Source of the DNA: Shigella phage vB_SflM_004
DNA length: 64,000 bases
Sequence record: MK295205
Direction: 5' to 3' (one strand)
The notes under the pieces were generated by a model, which ran no database searches, was not told the DNA's origin, and saw nothing but the letters and a program-made list of their open reading frames with translations. Within the stretch, counting starts at the first letter, position 1. Each line of letters opens with the position of its first letter. A program made the position numbers and the translations under genes. Below are positions 2,846 through 25,735 of the stretch, piece by piece.

Positions 2846-3310
2846 ATGAAAATTAAAGAAGTCGTTCAAAAAGCCATGCTTAACAATTCAACTAAACATG
2901 AAATGTACATAGAGATTTGTGATAAGTTGAATTGTACAAGACATGCTGCTAAGGTTCTTGTACATTGTTTTATCTGGGAATGCTCAGAGGCTTATATGCA
3001 ACATGTAGCTTTTGAAAGTTCTAACTTACTAGGTGATGTAGAAGCTGGTGAGAAACTAAAAGAACCTGAGATGAAAACAGTTCCTAAAGTTGGTAATGTA
3101 TACCGCCTTAAAGACTTCAAGACTGGAAAGATTGTTGCAAAAGGTGTAGTAGAATCTGTTTACCATGATGGTAAATACTTACTTAAAATATTTGAGTATG
3201 ATAGCAGATATACACACTTGTGTGGTCTTACATTCTTAGTAACAGAAGAAGACCTCATTAAGAACAACAACAACAAGTTTGCAGTACCAGATTACCAAGT
3301 TTTACGATAA
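2846..3310 (+). CDS. hypothetical protein, paralog A copy 2
   Basis: 154-aa ORF; paralog of 1420-1884; preceded by the duplicated leader and RBS. Confidence 0.55.
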   Translation: MKIKEVVQKAMLNNSTKHEMYIEICDKLNCTRHAAKVLVHCFIWECSEAYMQHVAFESSNLLGDVEAGEKLKEPEMKTVPKVGNVYRLKDFKTGKIVAKGVVESVYHDGKYLLKIFEYDSRYTHLCGLTFLVTEEDLIKNNNNKFAVPDYQVLR

Positions 3311-3323
3311 TGGTGTGATAGAT

Positions 3324-3872
3324 ATGGAAAAAGATAACTTAAAAGAAGTTGAAGGTAACTATCTAGTACTTGATTGGAATGATATTCGGGAAGCACTCTC
3401 CGAAGAAAATCTTGACTGGTTCGAACAAATTATCTTTGCAGTACGGCATAACAGAGAAGTTGAAAATGGTAAAGAGCCACTTGAAGGAATCTTTGTAGAA
3501 AGGTCTTATCCGTTCTATGAAGACACTTTACAGAAAGTTAAGATGTACTTTAGACAGAAGAACCGTAAAGTGGTCACTATGGTATCTCTTGGTGGACAGA
3601 GCATGTCTGTGATGGAAGATATCAACCCTAAGAGACCAAGTAAAGGTATCTGTATAAAAATCACAGGGCATGAAGAGTATATCTCAGTGGATGACTTTAG
3701 TGCATTCTGTAATGGTTCTGCTGTATTTAATGGGTTTCACTATGATATCCGAGTGTATCCAATCAAGGGAGATGATATCATGATGCAGGTATTCGATAAC
3801 AACAATGGGTTTACTCATTTTTATCAGACAACCAAGTCATCACTGAAGACAGTTCTGGAAACACTGATTTAA
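3324..3872 (+). CDS. hypothetical protein, paralog B copy 2
   Basis: ORF 3279-3872 begins on a TTG; first ATG at 3324; paralog of 1898-2446. Confidence 0.5.
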   Translation: MEKDNLKEVEGNYLVLDWNDIREALSEENLDWFEQIIFAVRHNREVENGKEPLEGIFVERSYPFYEDTLQKVKMYFRQKNRKVVTMVSLGGQSMSVMEDINPKRPSKGICIKITGHEEYISVDDFSAFCNGSAVFNGFHYDIRVYPIKGDDIMMQVFDNNNGFTHFYQTTKSSLKTVLETLI

Positions 3873-8763: not shown

Positions 8764-9327
8764 TTAACCTAAAAAGTCGCTTAGATTGCGTTCTGTGATG
8801 TTTGCCGTGATTTTATCCAGCAAGTCACAAAACACGGAACTATCACCGCTATTCTGTACAATTTTCGCCATACTTAACAAATCATCGTCAACATAGCCTA
8901 AATTGCGGTTAGTTGCATCTGGTACAAAGAAAGGTGCATACATCGCACTAAATTTCGTTGAGTGTATGCTAACAATCCAATTTTTATCAAAGTATCCGGT
9001 AAAGCTGGCAATTTCGCTCATGTTGTCACAAGAATAATCATCCTCTAGCTCTTCCTCTGGGATATCCATTTCAATAACAATCACTTCCTGCGTCTCCATT
9101 TGGAAAGCTGCCGTGATAAGCCCAGACTCTAAAGCGCTTTGAATGCAGCGTTCACGGATGTAAGAATCTTCCTCATCTTCCAGACATTCCGTTTTGATAA
9201 CCTTGTTCATTGGGTAAACGTAGAAACAATCGTCCATGTAGGAGCAGTTCCAGATTCCTTCCGGCTTGTCGCCACCATTCAGCAGGTTTACAAAGTTTTT
9301 GAGGGTAGTTCCGTGATAGCATTTCAT
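8764..9327 (-). CDS. hypothetical early protein
   Basis: 187-aa ORF; canonical ggagattcaaaaATG start. Confidence 0.5.
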   Translation of the reverse strand: MKCYHGTTLKNFVNLLNGGDKPEGIWNCSYMDDCFYVYPMNKVIKTECLEDEEDSYIRERCIQSALESGLITAAFQMETQEVIVIEMDIPEEELEDDYSCDNMSEIASFTGYFDKNWIVSIHSTKFSAMYAPFFVPDATNRNLGYVDDDLLSMAKIVQNSGDSSVFCDLLDKITANITERNLSDFLG

Positions 9328-9412
9328 TTTTGAATCTCCAGTTTAGGATTTAGTGGTAAAGCTCTTTATCTGGGGCTTACTTTATCGAACTATAAGCCCC
9401 TTGTAAAGTACT
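9328..9412 (-). promoter_or_regulatory. intergenic hairpin+RBS element, family 2
   Basis: GGGGCTTActttatcgaactaTAAGCCCC hairpin plus taaactggagattc RBS. Confidence 0.5.
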
Positions 9413-9661
9413 TTATTTAACTTTTTTTGAGAAAATTAGTTTAACTGCAACCGTAGGAATCTCGTCAGCGGTTGTAACCCGCATTACTTTTTGAGTGACC
9501 AACTTATAGCCGTTCTTTGCAGCGTATGCGGTAAAACGGTTAACGTTGTAACTATAAGTTTTTGGTGTGTTATCTGGCATGTGGTAAAGAAAAGGTTTAC
9601 CCAAATTTTCTTCTTGTGTCAACAGTCGGCAGGTATCAGGGATATTGAAATAGTTCATCAT
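9413..9661 (-). CDS. hypothetical early protein
   Basis: 82-aa ORF with ATGATG start after a family-2 element. Confidence 0.5.
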   Translation of the reverse strand: MMNYFNIPDTCRLLTQEENLGKPFLYHMPDNTPKTYSYNVNRFTAYAAKNGYKLVTQKVMRVTTADEIPTVAVKLIFSKKVK

Positions 9662-9751
9662 TTTTGAATCTCCTAGTTTAAGGATTATGTAAAGCTCTTT
9701 ATCTGGGGCTTACTGTACAGACTTATAAGCCCCTTGTAAAGTACTTTTTAT
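9662..9751 (-). promoter_or_regulatory. intergenic hairpin+RBS element, family 2
   Basis: GGGGCTTA...TAAGCCCC hairpin copy. Confidence 0.5.
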
Positions 9752-9949
9752 TTAATTTTTGACAACTTTTAAAACTGCAAGATAACCTAAGCAATAAGAG
9801 TCACCGAAGAGAGTCCTACCCATGAAAGAATCCTCTTTGATATCCTTTGCAGTGACAGTTTTTTCTACGCCGTGGGAAAGGACTACATCACCAACTTTGA
9901 TATCTTTGATGTGTGTTGTTTCAATGGTTAAGCCGTTAATAATAGCCAT
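9752..9949 (-). CDS. hypothetical early protein
   Basis: 65-aa ORF; element RBS. Confidence 0.45.
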   Translation of the reverse strand: MAIINGLTIETTHIKDIKVGDVVLSHGVEKTVTAKDIKEDSFMGRTLFGDSYCLGYLAVLKVVKN

Positions 9950-13402: not shown

Positions 13403-13922
13403 TTTTGGATTCTCCAGTTTAGGAAGTGGGCTGTCTTGCCCGTCTGATGCAAATATTAAATAACCATAGTCAAAGAGTCAATAGGAATTTTAAAAATATT
13501 TTTGCAAAAAACTGTAATGAAACGGGCGCACGCGACTACCACAAAACAGAAATATAATCAAGAATTATTTTTCAATCCGCTACAAATTTTTCTGTTGACT
13601 TTTATTTCCAGATGTGGTATTTTTGTGAGAAATGGCGACATCCCCACCTGCACCCACCTACCTGCACAATTCTAAAATGATTTTTCTTGCCCGACCTGAG
13701 CGGGGTCTGCACGTTTTGAAAATAAAAAAGCTCTTTGGAGATTATCTGCACAGTTTGAAAATGAATTTTCTCTTTGGAGTTCAAAATTTTCTCTACAGAT
13801 TTCTGTCCAGAGTTCTATGCAACTCTACCTGCACAATCCTGAAATGAAAAAGCCCTCCTTACCTGAAAAATTTAACCCAGATAAGAAAGGCTTAACCTAT
13901 TGTGAATATTCTACAGAGTTTC
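13403..13922. promoter_or_regulatory. gene-free control region with repeated ctacctgcacaatYctRaaatga motifs
   Basis: Motif at ~13656 and ~13826 with related ctgcaca repeats between; only short ORFs, probably spurious. Confidence 0.35.
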
Positions 13923-14717
13923 TTAGTTCTTTGCGTCTAAGAAGGTTACTTCCGGTGAAGAGAAAATTTCCTCAACATCCTCATCAGTTCTTGCATAGAT
14001 ATATGTATCTGCATCACTGCCAAATGTTACTGCAATCCTGTGATTGCTCTTTGACAGGTGGGTAACTAGAGCGTTACTTAGAGACATCTTTTCAACCGGA
14101 GGGTTACTTTGATGTATCTTGCCTTTTCTTCGTCTGAAGAGGGTAACTATATCATCTGTGAACACAACTACACCTGCAAAGTATTCTGGTTCACAGTAGT
14201 TCTTCCAACCTGAGCCAGGACTAGGTAACTTGTGGTACATCTCTCCTTCATAGACATACAGATACACATCTACACTCTTCATCACCTGATTTATGATGAC
14301 TGTGACGGCTTGAGAGTCTAGTCCACCGATACCTGCACCAATCATAGGTAACCCAACTTTCTTCAACTGATTGACTTCACAGTATCTGTTTAATTGTTTC
14401 AAAGATGATTCTAAAGCACTGTATCGGGCATCTTTACCAGTCTTAAGCTGAGTGTAAAGGTTAGCTATACGGCCTTGTTCTAAACGTGCTACAGAGAAAT
14501 TCCCTAGTAAATTTTCACAGGGTTTGTGACCTATGCCACCTGCATACAGATAAACTTCTGTATCGGTTTCATATGCTTTTGGGTAAAGTTTGGAAATCTT
14601 GTCAGCGATACCTGCACCCATTAAGTTCATACAGTTGCAACCGTGGCCAATGATATCAAACTTACCTTTATCAAATGCGGAGAAGATATCCCCATTGATG
14701 ATTTTTACAATACCCAT
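13923..14717 (-). CDS. macro-domain protein (ADP-ribose binding/processing) with a C-terminal extension of ~100 aa
   Basis: N-terminal IINGDIF...GHGCNCMNLMGAGIA and second Gly loop PMIGAGIGGL match macro-domain ligand-binding loops; GGGAGAGA RBS. Confidence 0.6.
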   Translation of the reverse strand: MGIVKIINGDIFSAFDKGKFDIIGHGCNCMNLMGAGIADKISKLYPKAYETDTEVYLYAGGIGHKPCENLLGNFSVARLEQGRIANLYTQLKTGKDARYSALESSLKQLNRYCEVNQLKKVGLPMIGAGIGGLDSQAVTVIINQVMKSVDVYLYVYEGEMYHKLPSPGSGWKNYCEPEYFAGVVVFTDDIVTLFRRRKGKIHQSNPPVEKMSLSNALVTHLSKSNHRIAVTFGSDADTYIYARTDEDVEEIFSSPEVTFLDAKN

Positions 14718-15167
14718 TTAGCATCTCTCCCAAGATTCTTTATCTTCTGAAGGTTTTACACGTTGTCCTTCGTGGTCTACCCAGATACATCCACAACCTT
14801 CACAGATTACTGGCATTGCATAGCCAGCTTTAAAGTCATCTTCAGTGATAAGACCTTTTAAGTCTCCTGTATCACGCCCGAACATTTCGATAGCACAATC
14901 TTTGCAGAAGTCAGCCATGAATAATTGCCTCTTGAATGATGATACCTTTGCCACAACGACTTTTGAAGTCTTCCAATGGTCAAGTTCCTCTGTGAGATGA
15001 AGCCACGCAATATAGTGGCAATAACTAAATGCTAATTTTTCCCTGTAGGCTATCACATCATTTTTATAGATTCGTGCTGTAAATGGAATCACTTTATTCC
15101 TTCCAATGAATACTGCTGACCGGATAATTTTCCGTGTCTTTTTATCTCTGGCTAGAATTACTCTCAT
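14718..15167 (-). CDS. hypothetical protein with C-terminal Cys-rich (zinc-ribbon-like) region
   Basis: 149-aa ORF; CKDC...CEGCGC cysteine pairs; start uncertain (internal MADFCKDC possible). Confidence 0.4.
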   Translation of the reverse strand: MRVILARDKKTRKIIRSAVFIGRNKVIPFTARIYKNDVIAYREKLAFSYCHYIAWLHLTEELDHWKTSKVVVAKVSSFKRQLFMADFCKDCAIEMFGRDTGDLKGLITEDDFKAGYAMPVICEGCGCIWVDHEGQRVKPSEDKESWERC

Positions 15168-16782: not shown

Positions 16783-17478
16783 TCAATGTTTAACTAACAT
16801 GGTTTTAATGTGTGGAAGGATTCTGTTTACCTTCTGAACATTCTTCTCTGTATCTTCTATAAAACATACTATATTAAAGTAAGGCAGAATGCAAGATTGA
16901 ATCATCCTCACTTTCAAACTTTCTGCACTTATAGAGTTAGTTCCAAAACCACGCATAAAAAGCATGTAGTCATGCTCTATGTTATGCCTTAAGAACATCT
17001 CAGTAGGTATTCTCTGAGATTCACCTCTTGCTGTCAAGAGTCCAATGGCAGCATGATTAGCGATTGCATCAATAATACTAAAAACATACGTTGGTTTTGC
17101 TCTTACAGAGTCAAGAAGATTAGTGTACTGTGAGAATGACCCATCAGTCAATTCCGTTGAGCAATCTTCGTGATTAAAATTTGTAAGAACACCATCAATA
17201 TCTGCTAAGATGAGGTTACCTTTTTCTACAAGGTCTTTATTGACTATGACTAAACTGTCACGTCTTACACCTATAGATTGCCCCGTCTCTTTATCCACAA
17301 CGTTCACAACTGGTTGTGATGTGTGGAACTCTTCAAGTGAACATACAACTTCTCTTGCAGTATCTTCAAAATCCCTGCACTGTTCTGAAGTCCATACACA
17401 GGAATCAAGACCTAACTCATAAGGATGCAAGTCATAAGCATGACACAATACTTCATCAGACTTTCTTAATTTTTTCAT
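16783..17478 (-). CDS. HAD-family phosphatase (possible 5-prime deoxynucleotidase)
   Basis: HAD motif I LADIDGVLT (DxDG[TV]); 231 aa. Confidence 0.5.
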   Translation of the reverse strand: MKKLRKSDEVLCHAYDLHPYELGLDSCVWTSEQCRDFEDTAREVVCSLEEFHTSQPVVNVVDKETGQSIGVRRDSLVIVNKDLVEKGNLILADIDGVLTNFNHEDCSTELTDGSFSQYTNLLDSVRAKPTYVFSIIDAIANHAAIGLLTARGESQRIPTEMFLRHNIEHDYMLFMRGFGTNSISAESLKVRMIQSCILPYFNIVCFIEDTEKNVQKVNRILPHIKTMLVKH

Positions 17479-22520: not shown

Positions 22521-24335
22521 TTAAAGCTGCTTGTCAATATTATTTCGAATATCACCAAGAGTCGTGTAGCCGAACTGCTCAGAGTCGCTAAAGACTAGAC
22601 GTAAAGCACAAGCTGGATGCTCAAGTGCATCTGCAAAACTCTGGAATCCATAGCCATCTACAGCTTTCAGGTTCTCACCATCCCACATAGGGGCTACACC
22701 ACCAAAAGCAGACTTCTTAATACCACTATCTGTTTTAGGGTCTTTTGCAAGCATAATCTCTTTACCACCAATGCTTGCAAGAGTTGCTTTGACAGCAAAT
22801 GCAAAGGTGTCACGAGTCATGTACTGGTAAGTGTAAGAACCTACACCAAACACTACGTTAGAACTTGCAAAACCCATTTCATACAAACGCTTCAGTATTT
22901 CGTTTGCACGTTCCAACGTGATAGAGTCACCATAAATAAGTCCGATATGCTCATCCAGTACTTTAAAACCTTTAGAGTTGATAGTTCCTCCAAAGATGTT
23001 ATACAGTGTCTTGATAGCTCCATCAATCTCCGCCACAGGACGTGTTACAACGTTTGCAGAACCAACCATATAAGCGTTTTTCAACAGCACTGTATCAGCA
23101 ACTTCAAAGTCTTCTCTGTCAACAACCATTTCGTAGCCTTCTGACAGTAGCCATCCAGCAATACCATAATTGATGTTTTCAAGCTTCATGTTCAGAACAG
23201 CATTCAACATTGTGTCGCTGGCTTCCAGCTTGCTTAAGTGTTCGTAATAAGCCTTTTTAGCACACTCTAAATGGATTGCTTTGTATCCTGTGACAATATG
23301 TACAGGGTCTCCAGAATCAGGACGAATTACCAGTTTGCCATTGCGTTCCATAATCTCTTTACGGAGTTCTGGTAATATAACTGATACAGTTCTCCAGAAG
23401 TTATAAGTATCTGAAACAACACTTGCAATACCAGTTGGGTAAGTTTCTGTTAAGAAACGACGGAAGGTTTGTAACTCACCTTTAAAGCGTCTTTCTTCTA
23501 GCAAGTTGTCAGACTGTAACAGATGCCAATCATCAATCAACTCATTACCACCTTCCCAAGCAATGTTTGCACACATTACAGAATGTTCAGTGGCTGGTAC
23601 AGAACTACCAATATCAGAAATTGGGTAAGCCTGTCCATAGATGCGTTTAGCCGTGTATACAGCAGGGAAGCTATCAGTTCCTTTAAAGCTGGTTAAGTGG
23701 CCTACAGCGTTAAATGCGTCATCAGTAAAGCCAGACATACCACGCATAGCAAAGTCATGGCACTGATAAGGCAAATGTAAGTCGTTGTCACAAGTAAGGT
23801 CAGACCACTTCTTACAGATGCGTTTGTAGTGCAATGCAATAGTTGCAATGGTACAAGCCTTCCAAATCTCAGCAGAGAAAGCATCTTCCAGATACCCAGC
23901 TACCCAGTGGAAACCTGAAACAGTGTTCTGGAAGACAATCATTGGTACACGCATAGGGACAACTGTGCCTTCTTCTACAGCGTATACTTCAACTGGCAGA
24001 TAACCTAAGTCGTGAAGTGCTTCCCAATGCTCTCGACCAATAGCATCTTTACCCAGAACTCCGTTCATGACTTCTAAGATTTCATCAATTGCTTCTTTTT
24101 TGTCACGTTCGAAGAAGGTGGCGTTCCAGTGGTCTATCAGGTAATCTTTAACGAAACGTTGAATACCAAAAGCAACTACACCATCAATTGCTAAGGGGCT
24201 GTTAAACCATTTGTCACTACGTGGTGTCAGGTTCAACATAAGATATTGCGTAGCATCTGGATACTGATATATATGTGATGCCTTGTAAGCATCTGCATTA
24301 AGACCTGCTGGTACTGCGTAAAGTGACTTACTCAT
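22521..24335 (-). CDS. nicotinamide phosphoribosyltransferase family protein (NAMPT-like; candidate nicotinamide-ADPR transferase)
   Basis: 604 aa; NAMPT-type motifs GTDS, HSVM, RPDSGDP, YGDSIT; GAGAGAGA RBS. Confidence 0.85.
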   Translation of the reverse strand: MSKSLYAVPAGLNADAYKASHIYQYPDATQYLMLNLTPRSDKWFNSPLAIDGVVAFGIQRFVKDYLIDHWNATFFERDKKEAIDEILEVMNGVLGKDAIGREHWEALHDLGYLPVEVYAVEEGTVVPMRVPMIVFQNTVSGFHWVAGYLEDAFSAEIWKACTIATIALHYKRICKKWSDLTCDNDLHLPYQCHDFAMRGMSGFTDDAFNAVGHLTSFKGTDSFPAVYTAKRIYGQAYPISDIGSSVPATEHSVMCANIAWEGGNELIDDWHLLQSDNLLEERRFKGELQTFRRFLTETYPTGIASVVSDTYNFWRTVSVILPELRKEIMERNGKLVIRPDSGDPVHIVTGYKAIHLECAKKAYYEHLSKLEASDTMLNAVLNMKLENINYGIAGWLLSEGYEMVVDREDFEVADTVLLKNAYMVGSANVVTRPVAEIDGAIKTLYNIFGGTINSKGFKVLDEHIGLIYGDSITLERANEILKRLYEMGFASSNVVFGVGSYTYQYMTRDTFAFAVKATLASIGGKEIMLAKDPKTDSGIKKSAFGGVAPMWDGENLKAVDGYGFQSFADALEHPACALRLVFSDSEQFGYTTLGDIRNNIDKQL

Positions 24336-24353: not shown

Positions 24354-24845
24354 TTAGTTATGTCTTGCAAACTCACCATGAAGTTCTATTCGCTTTTTAA
24401 TTACAGCTTCTTTTGCTTCTTCTACCGTTTTAAATCTTCCACAAAAGTATTCTTTATGGTAAAGCATGACTCTTGCTTTGTAAAGACCTGTTTGTTTACA
24501 AAAACTTACACCCTTCACACCAGTTTTATTATTCTTGTATATACCCCTATTCCTCTGATTTTGTGACTTTGTGCTAAGTCTTAAATTCTCCAACTTATTA
24601 TTAGATTTATCAAGGTCTATGTGGTCTATCTCATATCCACTTGGTATCTCACCTCCAGACATAATCCATGCAATATTATGTGCATAGTACCTCTTCTTAT
24701 TTATCTGGACTTGGATATAACCCTTCTTAGACCTTGTGCCAGCAACATTACCAGCAATAGCGGTATTGCAAAGGGTTACTTTCCAAATTAGTAAACCTGT
24801 CTCCGGTTCGTATATTAGGTATTTTTCGAAGTAACCCTTATCCAT
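24354..24845 (-). CDS. HNH homing endonuclease (HNH + AP2-like DNA-binding domain)
   Basis: 163 aa; YEPETGLLIW N-terminal motif, HIDLDKSNNKLENL HNH core, GVKGVSF...ARV AP2-like; sits between the NAMPT-like and Prs-like genes. Confidence 0.75.
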   Translation of the reverse strand: MDKGYFEKYLIYEPETGLLIWKVTLCNTAIAGNVAGTRSKKGYIQVQINKKRYYAHNIAWIMSGGEIPSGYEIDHIDLDKSNNKLENLRLSTKSQNQRNRGIYKNNKTGVKGVSFCKQTGLYKARVMLYHKEYFCGRFKTVEEAKEAVIKKRIELHGEFARHN

Positions 24846-24853
24846 TTTAATAC

Positions 24854-25735
24854 CTAATCCAAATTTGCTACAGTAACTTGACCATAATGTGTTAAACCAC
24901 GGTCTTTATCTTCCCCTAAAGAGTTTGTAGTGTAGATGTGGTCAATACCATTGTCAAGAAGGTTTTCAACACCTTTAGAAAAGATACCATGTGTTACATA
25001 GAGTTCCACACGTTTTGCACCTGCTTCACGAAGATGTTTAGCTGCTTCTATGAAGGTTCGTCCTCCATCACAAATATCATCCAGAATCATGACGGTTTTA
25101 TCTGTCAAATCAACATCATCAAGGATTCGTATACCAGTAATTTCACCAGTCTTAAGGTTACGTACTTTAGACATTGTGATGTATGGCTTATCCACCTCTT
25201 TAGCAGTCTCTGCAATCTTCTTAGCAGCACCTGCATCTGGGGCTACTAAGTAATCAACCAGTGGGTCATTTGCATAGTGGACTGCAATTTCCTTTTGAGG
25301 AATACTCTGGAAGCAGTTAAACAGGTTATCTGGTACATAACTGTGAGGGTCAACTGCACAGACTGCACCAAACCCCATTGCATTAACCTGTTTAGCAAAA
25401 ACCTTCAAAGCTGCTGCATCACCTTTAAACATGTGACGGTCATATCGTGCATTTGGTAAGTAGTAAAAAATGACAGTCTTTAAGGCATAGTCATGAGGGA
25501 CTAAATCATCAATTGCTTCTTTAGCAAGTGCCACAGCAAACAATGTGTCCTTATCATAACCTTTCACAATCATAATCACATTGTTGATAGATGATGCTGC
25601 ATAAGCAGTAAAATCAACAAGCTCTTGTGAAAAGTGTCCACCAATCTCACCAGAAGGGAATTGAATGATGTTAAACTCTTCTTCATGAGTCCCTTTAGTC
25701 GGTGAATGAACTGTAACACGGATAGATGTTTTCAT
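24854..25735 (-). CDS. ribose-phosphate pyrophosphokinase family protein (Prs-like; candidate ADP-ribose pyrophosphokinase)
   Basis: 293 aa; PRPP-synthetase fold signature including the ILDDICDGGRT loop; GAGAGAGAG RBS. Confidence 0.85.
   Translation of the reverse strand: MKTSIRVTVHSPTKGTHEEEFNIIQFPSGEIGGHFSQELVDFTAYAASSINNVIMIVKGYDKDTLFAVALAKEAIDDLVPHDYALKTVIFYYLPNARYDRHMFKGDAAALKVFAKQVNAMGFGAVCAVDPHSYVPDNLFNCFQSIPQKEIAVHYANDPLVDYLVAPDAGAAKKIAETAKEVDKPYITMSKVRNLKTGEITGIRILDDVDLTDKTVMILDDICDGGRTFIEAAKHLREAGAKRVELYVTHGIFSKGVENLLDNGIDHIYTTNSLGEDKDRGLTHYGQVTVANLD

Follow-up and report, generated by a model that had tools for sequence, protein, structure and literature searches.

The two CHARACTERISED phage relatives with recent experimental data, Tk.4 (AdfM) of phage T4 and Adpp of Vibrio phage Gary, belong to the same broad clade as the macro domain described here. 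It forms the N-terminal part of a 264-residue protein encoded at positions 13923–14717 (minus strand) of a 64 000-nucleotide stretch of Shigella phage vB_SflM_004 (sequence record MK295205), referred to below as the window. In T4, tk.4 proved necessary for resistance to DarTG2, both in a transposon screen and by clean knockout, and the gene was named adfM; removal of ADP-ribose (ADPR) from DNA by AdfM is a proposal of the same HIDEN-SEQ preprint (bioRxiv 10.1101/2025.11.20.689424). The name AdfM was given independently to a non-orthologous phage macrodomain, gp104 of the chimallivirus PhiKZ. This DarG2-like protein of the lysine type (Asn23/Lys78) removes DarT2 marks from DNA (PMC13309987), T4 Tk.4 being of the glutamine type. 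Gary Adpp (gp137) is a Poa1p-like macrodomain encoded between Adps and Namat, the two enzymes of NARP1. The purified protein converts ADPR-1''-phosphate (ADPR-1''P) to ADPR, and the resulting three-gene operon NARP1-AP prevails over aRES, a defence based on a RES-domain NAD+ phosphorylase, against which plain NARP1 fails. In about 15% of NARP1 phages a macrodomain gene is found at most two genes from the NARP1 operon, and H24A, which affects the histidine of the H-x-C-N-C motif, is the sole Adpp point mutant in the primer table (Osterman et al., bioRxiv 10.64898/2026.01.28.702374).

The macro domain of the window protein is a new member of this known phage anti-defence clade. Its fusion to an orphan C-terminal domain (CTD), always preceded by a small zinc-ribbon open reading frame (ORF), is an uncharacterised variant that occurs across Ounavirinae-like phages. 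The protein most likely helps the phage to undo or exploit bacterial immunity based on ADP-ribose or NAD+. The reading that we favour, while holding it tentatively, is that of an AdfM-type enzyme that would remove DarT2-derived ADP-ribose from thymidines of phage single-stranded DNA (ssDNA) using a lysine-independent active site, with the CTD acting as a lineage-specific recognition module.

The initial annotation had proposed a macro domain for the N-terminal ∼160 residues on the basis of two loops, GHGCNCMNLMGAGIA (residues 24–38) and PMIGAGIGGL (residues 124–133). Both strings are present in the minus-strand translation and profile searches agree with the assignment. The domain spans residues 1–157 (14247–14717, minus strand), of which residues 25–141 match the Pfam family Macro (PF01661; E = 2.2e-7; score 31.3 bits, cutoff 22). 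Searching the PDB with the single sequence retrieves TARG1/OARD1 (E = 1.6e-5) as well as the DarG macrodomains of Thermus aquaticus and Mycobacterium tuberculosis. With a profile built from 27 homologs, TARG1 is found with E = 3.5e-17 and the DarG macrodomains with about 1e-14 to 1e-16 (the listed TARG1 and DarG matches span 3.5e-17 to 8e-14), and SCO6735, Poa1p and BT1257 are also picked up. The top matches among curated profiles are to DarG (NCBIfam NF048014, E = 1.4e-12; PADLOC DarG, E = 5e-13) and cover the macro part only. An AlphaFold2 model of the full-length protein (pLDDT 84.9, pTM 0.85), built from 18 two-domain homologs, was superposed on solved macrodomains with Foldseek, giving TM-scores of 0.78–0.81 for TARG1, 0.74–0.77 for T. 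aquaticus DarG and 0.72 for Poa1p. Structural comparison, one of the checks that the initial annotation had proposed, is thus in line with it, and the modelled N-terminal domain has a genuine macro fold.

The gene itself starts with ATG and is preceded by a Shine–Dalgarno-like GGAGAG 8 nt 5' of the start codon. It is the ortholog of the gene for Bas63 gp95 (bas63_0095, 'putative phosphatase'; 95% amino-acid identity), and its product matches PHROG 335 (E = 1.7e-112). By Megablast, 204 phage records contain it at 80–97% nucleotide identity; nearly all of these are Felixounavirus, where 'phosphatase' is the usual annotation. The pairwise ratio of nonsynonymous to synonymous substitution rates (dN/dS, Nei–Gojobori) among Felixounavirus orthologs is 0.04–0.12 for codons 1–157 and 0.06–0.30 for codons 158–264. 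Because it is present in so many phage records and dN/dS is low in both halves, the ORF is a real, conserved gene and not a chance ORF. A terminator-like hairpin lies directly after the stop codon (13850–13893, minus strand), and the gene appears to be the last of its transcription unit. On a wider scale, 2,852 phage records contain the macro half according to tblastn, and just 255 of these align over 80% or more of the query and hence include the C-terminal half.

The active site was compared with those of the DarG macrodomains (sequences taken from the PDB), TARG1, Poa1p, T4 Tk.4, a Vibrio Adpp-type protein and PhiKZ gp104. Two motifs, H25-G-C-N28-C (14631–14645, minus strand) and N86-L-Y-T-Q90 (14448–14462, minus strand), stand out by their conservation in the 27 homologs, and the alignments place a predicted diphosphate/ribose-binding loop at P124-x-I-G-A-G-I-G-G-L-D134 (14316–14348, minus strand). 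The invariant residues include His25, Gly26, Asn28, Cys29, Asn86, Leu87, Thr89, Gln90, Pro124, Gly127 and Gly129; Cys27 and Tyr88 are nearly invariant, and the putative ADP-ribose-binding loops GAGIA and GAGIGGL are conserved. His25 aligns with His32 of TARG1, His23 of Poa1p (for which an H23A structure exists) and His24 of Gary Adpp, a position occupied by Asn in DarG. Asn28 aligns with Asn22 of DarG. Gln90 takes the place of the catalytic lysines Lys80 of DarG, Lys84 of TARG1 and Lys78 of PhiKZ AdfM, and Gly131 that of Asp125 of TARG1. The alignments thus indicate that the catalytic lysine of DarG and TARG1 is replaced by an invariant glutamine, while the histidine of the Poa1p/Adpp type is kept.

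TARG1/OARD1 and Poa1p are the top sequence and fold matches in the PDB and share the histidine of the H-x-C/S loop with the window protein. Poa1p also shares the full H-x-C-N-C loop, but has a serine at the position of Gln90 and a long insertion. A TARG1/OARD1-type glycohydrolase is not indicated, as the Lys84/Asp125 dyad is absent. The DarG2 macrodomains of T. aquaticus (PDB entries 5M31 and 5M3E) and M. tuberculosis (PDB entry 5M3I) resemble the window protein in their macro fold, in the asparagine corresponding to Asn28, in a GAGxGGL loop (GAGNGGL in DarG), in the length of the loop that follows the catalytic position and in the general logic of a macro domain followed by a C-terminal domain. 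However, DarG2 and PhiKZ gp104 are just 24–25% identical to the window protein, their lysine is replaced by glutamine and the DarT-binding C-terminal domain of DarG2 is unrelated to the CTD found here. Identification as a DarG2 antitoxin fails further on the score against NF048014 (47.5 bits, far below the cutoff of 250, covering profile positions 4–149 of 338 only) and on the lack of an adjacent darT, the neighbours being the 66-residue zinc-ribbon ORF and small phage ORFs. Lacking the defining lysine and having the Poa1p/Adpp-type histidine, the window protein would therefore fall outside the TARG1-type and DarG2 groups, yet it is homologous to both.

T4 Tk.4 is the closest characterised relative (35% identity, E = 5e-24). 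It has the same HGCNC, NLYTQ and P-R-I-G-A-G-I-G motifs (P-x-I-G-A-G-I-G being common to both), but consists of a single 155-residue domain, to which the window protein adds an orphan domain of 107 residues. H-G-[CA]-N-C and N-L-Y-T-Q are common to the window protein, all two-domain relatives and T4 Tk.4, and in all of these the spacing between the glutamine and the next conserved aromatic residue is exactly eight residues. This spacing is also seen in DarG, PhiKZ AdfM and TARG1. In contrast, the corresponding loop has 12–15 residues in all eight NARP1-embedded macrodomains that were sampled, most of which have H-Q-x-N-C and Y-G-Q-Y instead. Table S1 of bioRxiv 10.64898/2026.01.28.702374 contains about 128 such operon-embedded macrodomains, with YGQY in 103 of them, YTQY in 13 and NLYTQ in two; the latter two are from Aeromonas phages and continue with a tyrosine and a long loop. 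None of the entries in that table is from an Escherichia or Salmonella phage.

We also aligned 29 macro domains and constructed a neighbour-joining tree. The two-domain proteins form a single clade (99% bootstrap), and PhiKZ gp104 groups with DarG, apart from both T4 Tk.4 and the window protein. The position of the two-domain clade relative to the other phage macrodomains is too weak to rely on, and it is the discrete characters (HGCNC, NLYTQ and the eight-residue loop) that place the window protein in the T4 AdfM subtype and not in the operon-embedded Adpp subtype, as judged from sequence. Adpp proper is a poor match: His24 of Gary Adpp is indeed retained as the invariant His25, but the gene is not within two genes of Adps and Namat, it is absent from Table S1, and it encodes Y-T-Q-L followed by an eight-residue loop in place of Y-[GT]-Q-Y followed by 12–15 residues. 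The PhiKZ gp104 subtype of AdfM does not fit either (24% identity, clustering with DarG, Lys78 aligned with Gln90). Since the loop immediately follows the catalytic position, we infer that its length helps to decide whether bulky DNA or a small phosphate ester can be accommodated.

The linker and orphan CTD comprise residues 158–264 (13926–14246, minus strand). A separate AlphaFold2 model of this part (pLDDT 79, pTM 0.73) consists of a disordered linker, six β-strands and a C-terminal helix, and the full-length model, with its high pTM (0.85), suggests that the macro domain and the CTD are packed in a fixed arrangement. The initial annotation had recognised no motif in the C-terminal ∼100 residues. 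This still stands: Pfam, NCBIfam and PADLOC give no significant match and there is no match to DarG, a PH domain being proposed by Pfam below threshold only (E = 0.079–0.15). Foldseek against BFVD finds just the ortholog from phage SUSP2, and a profile search of the PDB returns just summed partial matches to BamB. A search of 1.84 billion representative proteins with a CTD-only profile yields macro–CTD proteins, one truncated ORF call, one fragment of 54 residues and PQQ-propeller or repetitive proteins. The likeness to the PQQ/BamB β-propellers is the sum of four to seven partial β-hairpin matches that cover less than half of the profile, with individual i-E-values of at least 20, and is taken as a resemblance at the level of motifs rather than as homology. 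The one apparent standalone CTD protein (P0030) starts inside the macro domain (…DVYLYVYD) and is a truncated ORF call. Because the CTD-only searches return just macro–CTD proteins, fragments and propeller resemblances, the CTD is, by sequence, known solely from Ounavirinae-like phages and only in fusion with this macro domain.

Purifying selection acts on the CTD, but its sequence diverges faster than that of the macro half. Amino-acid identities are 44–54% for the CTD versus 76–80% for the macro domain in the nearer group of homologs, and 14–21% versus 40–53% in the farther group. Between genera, dN is about 0.44–0.50 for the CTD and about 0.18–0.20 for the macro domain, a two- to threefold difference. 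The conserved positions are Asn173, Pro177, Phe180 and Gly182 in the linker and first strand, and Tyr239. In the nearer group a basic R-R/K-K-G-K-x-H turn followed by S-N-P-P-V-E is conserved as well, and Trp171 is conserved in a close subgroup only. Among homologs the net charge ranges between −5 and +4, so neither an acidic mimic of ssDNA such as the DarG CTD nor a basic DNA binder is indicated. A likeness to the aRad1 inhibitors of aRES was also considered; aRad1 is known from a qualitative description, and conserved Trp171 in the close subgroup is the only feature noted. The interdomain linker of the window protein (residues 166–173; 14199–14221, minus strand) reads KLPSPGSGW compared with KLRSGW in most Felixounavirus orthologs; it is three residues longer than in these, giving the length found in Suspvirus and Mooglevirus (264 residues).

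The source of the window is a Felix O1-like myovirus of the genus Felixounavirus, to which the comparison phage Bas63 (JohannRWettstein, MZ501086) also belongs according to the NCBI taxonomy. The initial annotation had placed NAD+ genes about 8 kb from the macro gene on the same strand, and they are indeed found 7.8 kb, or about 15 genes, upstream of its start. Pfam identifies them as a Prs-like Adps (24854–25735, minus strand; 78% identity to bas63_0079) and a NAMPT-like Namat (22521–24335, minus strand; 94% identity to bas63_0080). Bas63 genes 79–80 form the operon in which NARP1 was discovered by Osterman et al., where Adps converts ADPR and ATP to ADPR-pyrophosphate and Namat converts ADPR-pyrophosphate and nicotinamide to NAD+ (bioRxiv 10.1101/2024.02.11.579819). 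By this orthology, the NAD+ genes of the window are the prototype NARP1. The identity of the phage and of these genes, the loss of the catalytic lysine and the subtype all go beyond what the initial annotation contained.

From the observed fold, clade, motifs, conservation and selection, and genomic context, we infer as follows what the enzyme would act on, its part in countering DarT2 and what the CTD contributes. The protein would be expressed early as an anti-defence enzyme, and its macro domain would bind an ADP-ribose moiety and hydrolyse the linkage at the distal-ribose C1''. The bond cleaved would most likely be the N-glycosidic one that DarT2 forms with thymidine in single-stranded phage DNA. 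Its cleavage would yield replicable DNA and free ADP-ribose, which could be recycled to NAD+ by Adps and Namat of the phage. Catalysis would proceed in the absence of the DarG/TARG1 lysine, probably through His25 and Asn28 of H-G-C-N-C, Gln90 and the G-A-G-I-G-G-L loop. By analogy with DarG2, which pairs its macrodomain with a toxin-binding domain, the CTD may be a rigidly attached accessory module that recognises a substrate or partner, either ssDNA or a defence protein; its faster evolution would fit an interface in an arms race. In favour of this reading are the kinship with T4 Tk.4, the knockout of which sensitises T4 to DarTG2, the motifs and eight-residue loop held in common with it, the DarG profiles as top curated matches, the likeness of GAGIGGL to the DarG loop GAGNGGL and the parallel between the macro–CTD architecture and DarG2. 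Several observations weigh against it. DarG Lys80, which DarG requires for de-ADP-ribosylation of thymidine, is a glutamine in the whole clade of the window protein, and T4 AdfM is published as a knockout phenotype only, without enzymology (bioRxiv 10.1101/2025.11.20.689424), so that the function is shown genetically and for T4 only. The two-domain clade sits beside the T4 Tk.4 group and not the NARP1-embedded macrodomains at just 23% bootstrap. The CTD does not resemble the C-terminal domain of DarG, nor does its net charge have a consistent sign. A literature search found no published test of Bas63 or another Felixounavirus against DarTG or aRES. Finally, the phage carries NARP1, and relatives of the same clade are proven ADPR-1''P phosphatases whose histidine (mutated in H24A) is kept here.

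This last point leads to an ADPR-1''P phosphatase that would convert the product of aRES to ADPR for the phage NARP1, a NARP1-AP system with an unlinked third gene. We regard this as possible, if less probable than DarT2 reversal. The purified Adpp of Gary, an ADPR-1P phosphatase needed against aRES, belongs to the clade, and both phages encode Adps and Namat. In Vibrio phage Cilsick, of the same genus as Gary, the arrangement is Prs-like, macro, NAMPT-like, and the Adpp-type macrodomain gp173 shares 29% identity with the window protein (E = 5e-15) and 35% with T4 Tk.4. The catalytic histidine of Poa1p and Adpp is conserved as His25, a NAMPT-like gene lies upstream of rIIA in every inspected lineage with a two-domain protein, and aRES is present in E. 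coli, Klebsiella and Enterobacter. ADPR-1''P phosphatase activity is, moreover, common among macrodomains. However, Adpp is defined as lying at most two genes from NARP1, is single-domain and sits inside the operon, while the gene in the window is in a separate transcription unit and encodes a two-domain, short-loop protein without H-Q-x-N-C, Y-G/T-Q-Y or the 12–15-residue loop, and Escherichia and Salmonella phages are missing from Table S1. T4 has the same subtype and no NARP1, so that the subtype has a NARP1-independent function. DarT2 reversal and ADPR-1''P dephosphorylation are chemically close and not mutually exclusive, since both cleave the C1'' substituent of the distal ribose and release ADPR. 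A dual 'orphan antitoxin' that cleaves several C1''-linked conjugates (DarT2-modified thymidine, ADPR-1''-phosphate from aRES) and hands the products to NARP1, while its CTD blocks DarT2 or aRES or docks to Adps or Namat, is a rather doubtful proposition; if true, it would be convergent with the macro plus toxin-binding architecture of DarG2, using an unrelated domain.

Reversal of ADP-ribosylation of protein or RNA, as imposed by host ADP-ribosyltransferase (ART) defences (for example CmdTAC-type mRNA ADP-ribosylation) or by a phage-encoded ART, would agree with the versatility of macrodomains and with TARG1, a protein and nucleic-acid de-ADP-ribosylase, as best PDB match in sequence and fold. 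We consider it unlikely: both Lys84 and Asp125 of TARG1 are replaced, the role is not demonstrated in any homolog, and no ART gene turned up near the gene, where no search was aimed at ART genes. More improbable still is the degradation of ADPR-derived immune signals such as 2'/3'cADPR of Thoeris or His-ADPR, for which there is the general prediction that phage macrodomains target soluble ADP-ribose derivatives; it is not demonstrated for any macrodomain of this clade, and the known NARP1-linked enzyme that cleaves cADPR is an unrelated RyR-domain glycosidase. Of the three roles that the initial annotation had put forward with reserve, countering ART-based defence and supplying ADPR have experimental precedents in clade homologs (T4 AdfM and Gary Adpp, respectively), while signal degradation finds no support, the published enzyme for that task being the RyR-domain protein. 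A housekeeping, Poa1p-like clearance of ADPR-1''P from RNA repair seems equally improbable. It would fit the historical 'phosphatase' annotation, the PNK gene in the same gene block (16783–17478, 2 kb upstream) and the RNA ligases that flank the Cilsick operon, but T4-type Pnk/Rnl repair involves no 2'-phosphate and no Tpt1/KptA step and hence produces no ADPR-1''P, and no Tpt1 or 2H gene is seen near the gene.

Phages of the Felix O1 type, among them Bas63, in which NARP1 came to light, infect E. coli and Salmonella and serve as both model and therapeutic phages. Within the last year the macro family has gained two experimentally shown counter-defence roles, against DarTG2 and in the dephosphorylation of ADPR-1''P that feeds NARP1 against aRES. 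The window protein stands at the junction of the two: it has a T4 AdfM-type active site in a phage with NARP1, and is alone in having an additional orphan domain. It bears on whether DarT2 reversal and NAD+ reconstitution can be the work of a single macro subtype, on how macrodomains of the T4 AdfM/Adpp type work without the DarG/TARG1 lysine and on what the CTD adds. Any ADPR that is released in this phage would be a substrate for NARP1, and Bas63 gp95 offers a genetically tractable phage setting for this protein.

The gene order around the locus is NAMPT-like, rIIA, rIIB, …, SLT-like, PNK, …, spanins, …, the 66-residue zinc-ribbon ORF and macro–CTD. It is kept in Suspvirus, Mooglevirus and two metagenomic lineages, the macro–CTD proteins of the latter two being only about 33% identical to the window protein. 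The conserved zinc-ribbon ORF (14718–14918, minus strand; CxxC…CxxC) matches PHROG 2210 (function unknown; E = 1e-40) and its stop codon abuts the macro–CTD start codon (TAAATG). Felixounavirus, Suspvirus, Mooglevirus and Bas63 (bas63_0094) have the same 201-nt ORF immediately upstream of macro–CTD, and in the distant lineage L003 its place is taken by a 63-residue CxxC…CxxC ORF of different sequence. Its product may be a translationally coupled partner of the macro–CTD protein.

In the window, Adps and Namat are separated by a gene for an HNH homing endonuclease (HNH_3 plus AP2-like; 24354–24845, minus strand). This insertion is absent from Bas63, where genes 79 and 80 are adjacent. As Adps is only 78% identical to its Bas63 counterpart compared with 94% for Namat, mosaic exchange around the homing site is suggested. 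Relative to Bas63 Namat, residues 268–278 of Namat are an 11-residue insertion (DDWHLLQSDNL) in an otherwise 94% identical protein. In Cilsick, the RNA ligase genes on either side of the Adps–macro–Namat operon are found at 1386–2312 and 8787–9773, echoing the reported association of phage macro and NAD genes with RNA-repair genes.

Downstream of the macro–CTD gene, the intergenic segment 13659–13862 (plus-strand coordinates) contains three to four direct repeats of about 29–35 nt at a spacing of about 83–84 nt, with the consensus TAYCTGCACArTTyTrAAATGAwTTTTCT. They are flanked by the terminator-like hairpin (13893→13850) and a σ70-like promoter (13481→13453, minus strand), and the repeat tail TTTTCATTTC recurs after a further terminator (16295→16278). 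These repeats may be phage-specific regulatory or promoter elements. ARAGORN finds no tRNA genes in the 64-kb window; the cluster of over 20 tRNAs that Felixounaviruses such as Bas63 possess evidently lies outside it. Consecutive ORF pairs of equal lengths (154 and 197 residues, the 197-residue ORFs starting with TTG) are present at 1420–2446 and 2846–3872 (plus strand) and suggest a tandem duplication of about 1.4 kb.

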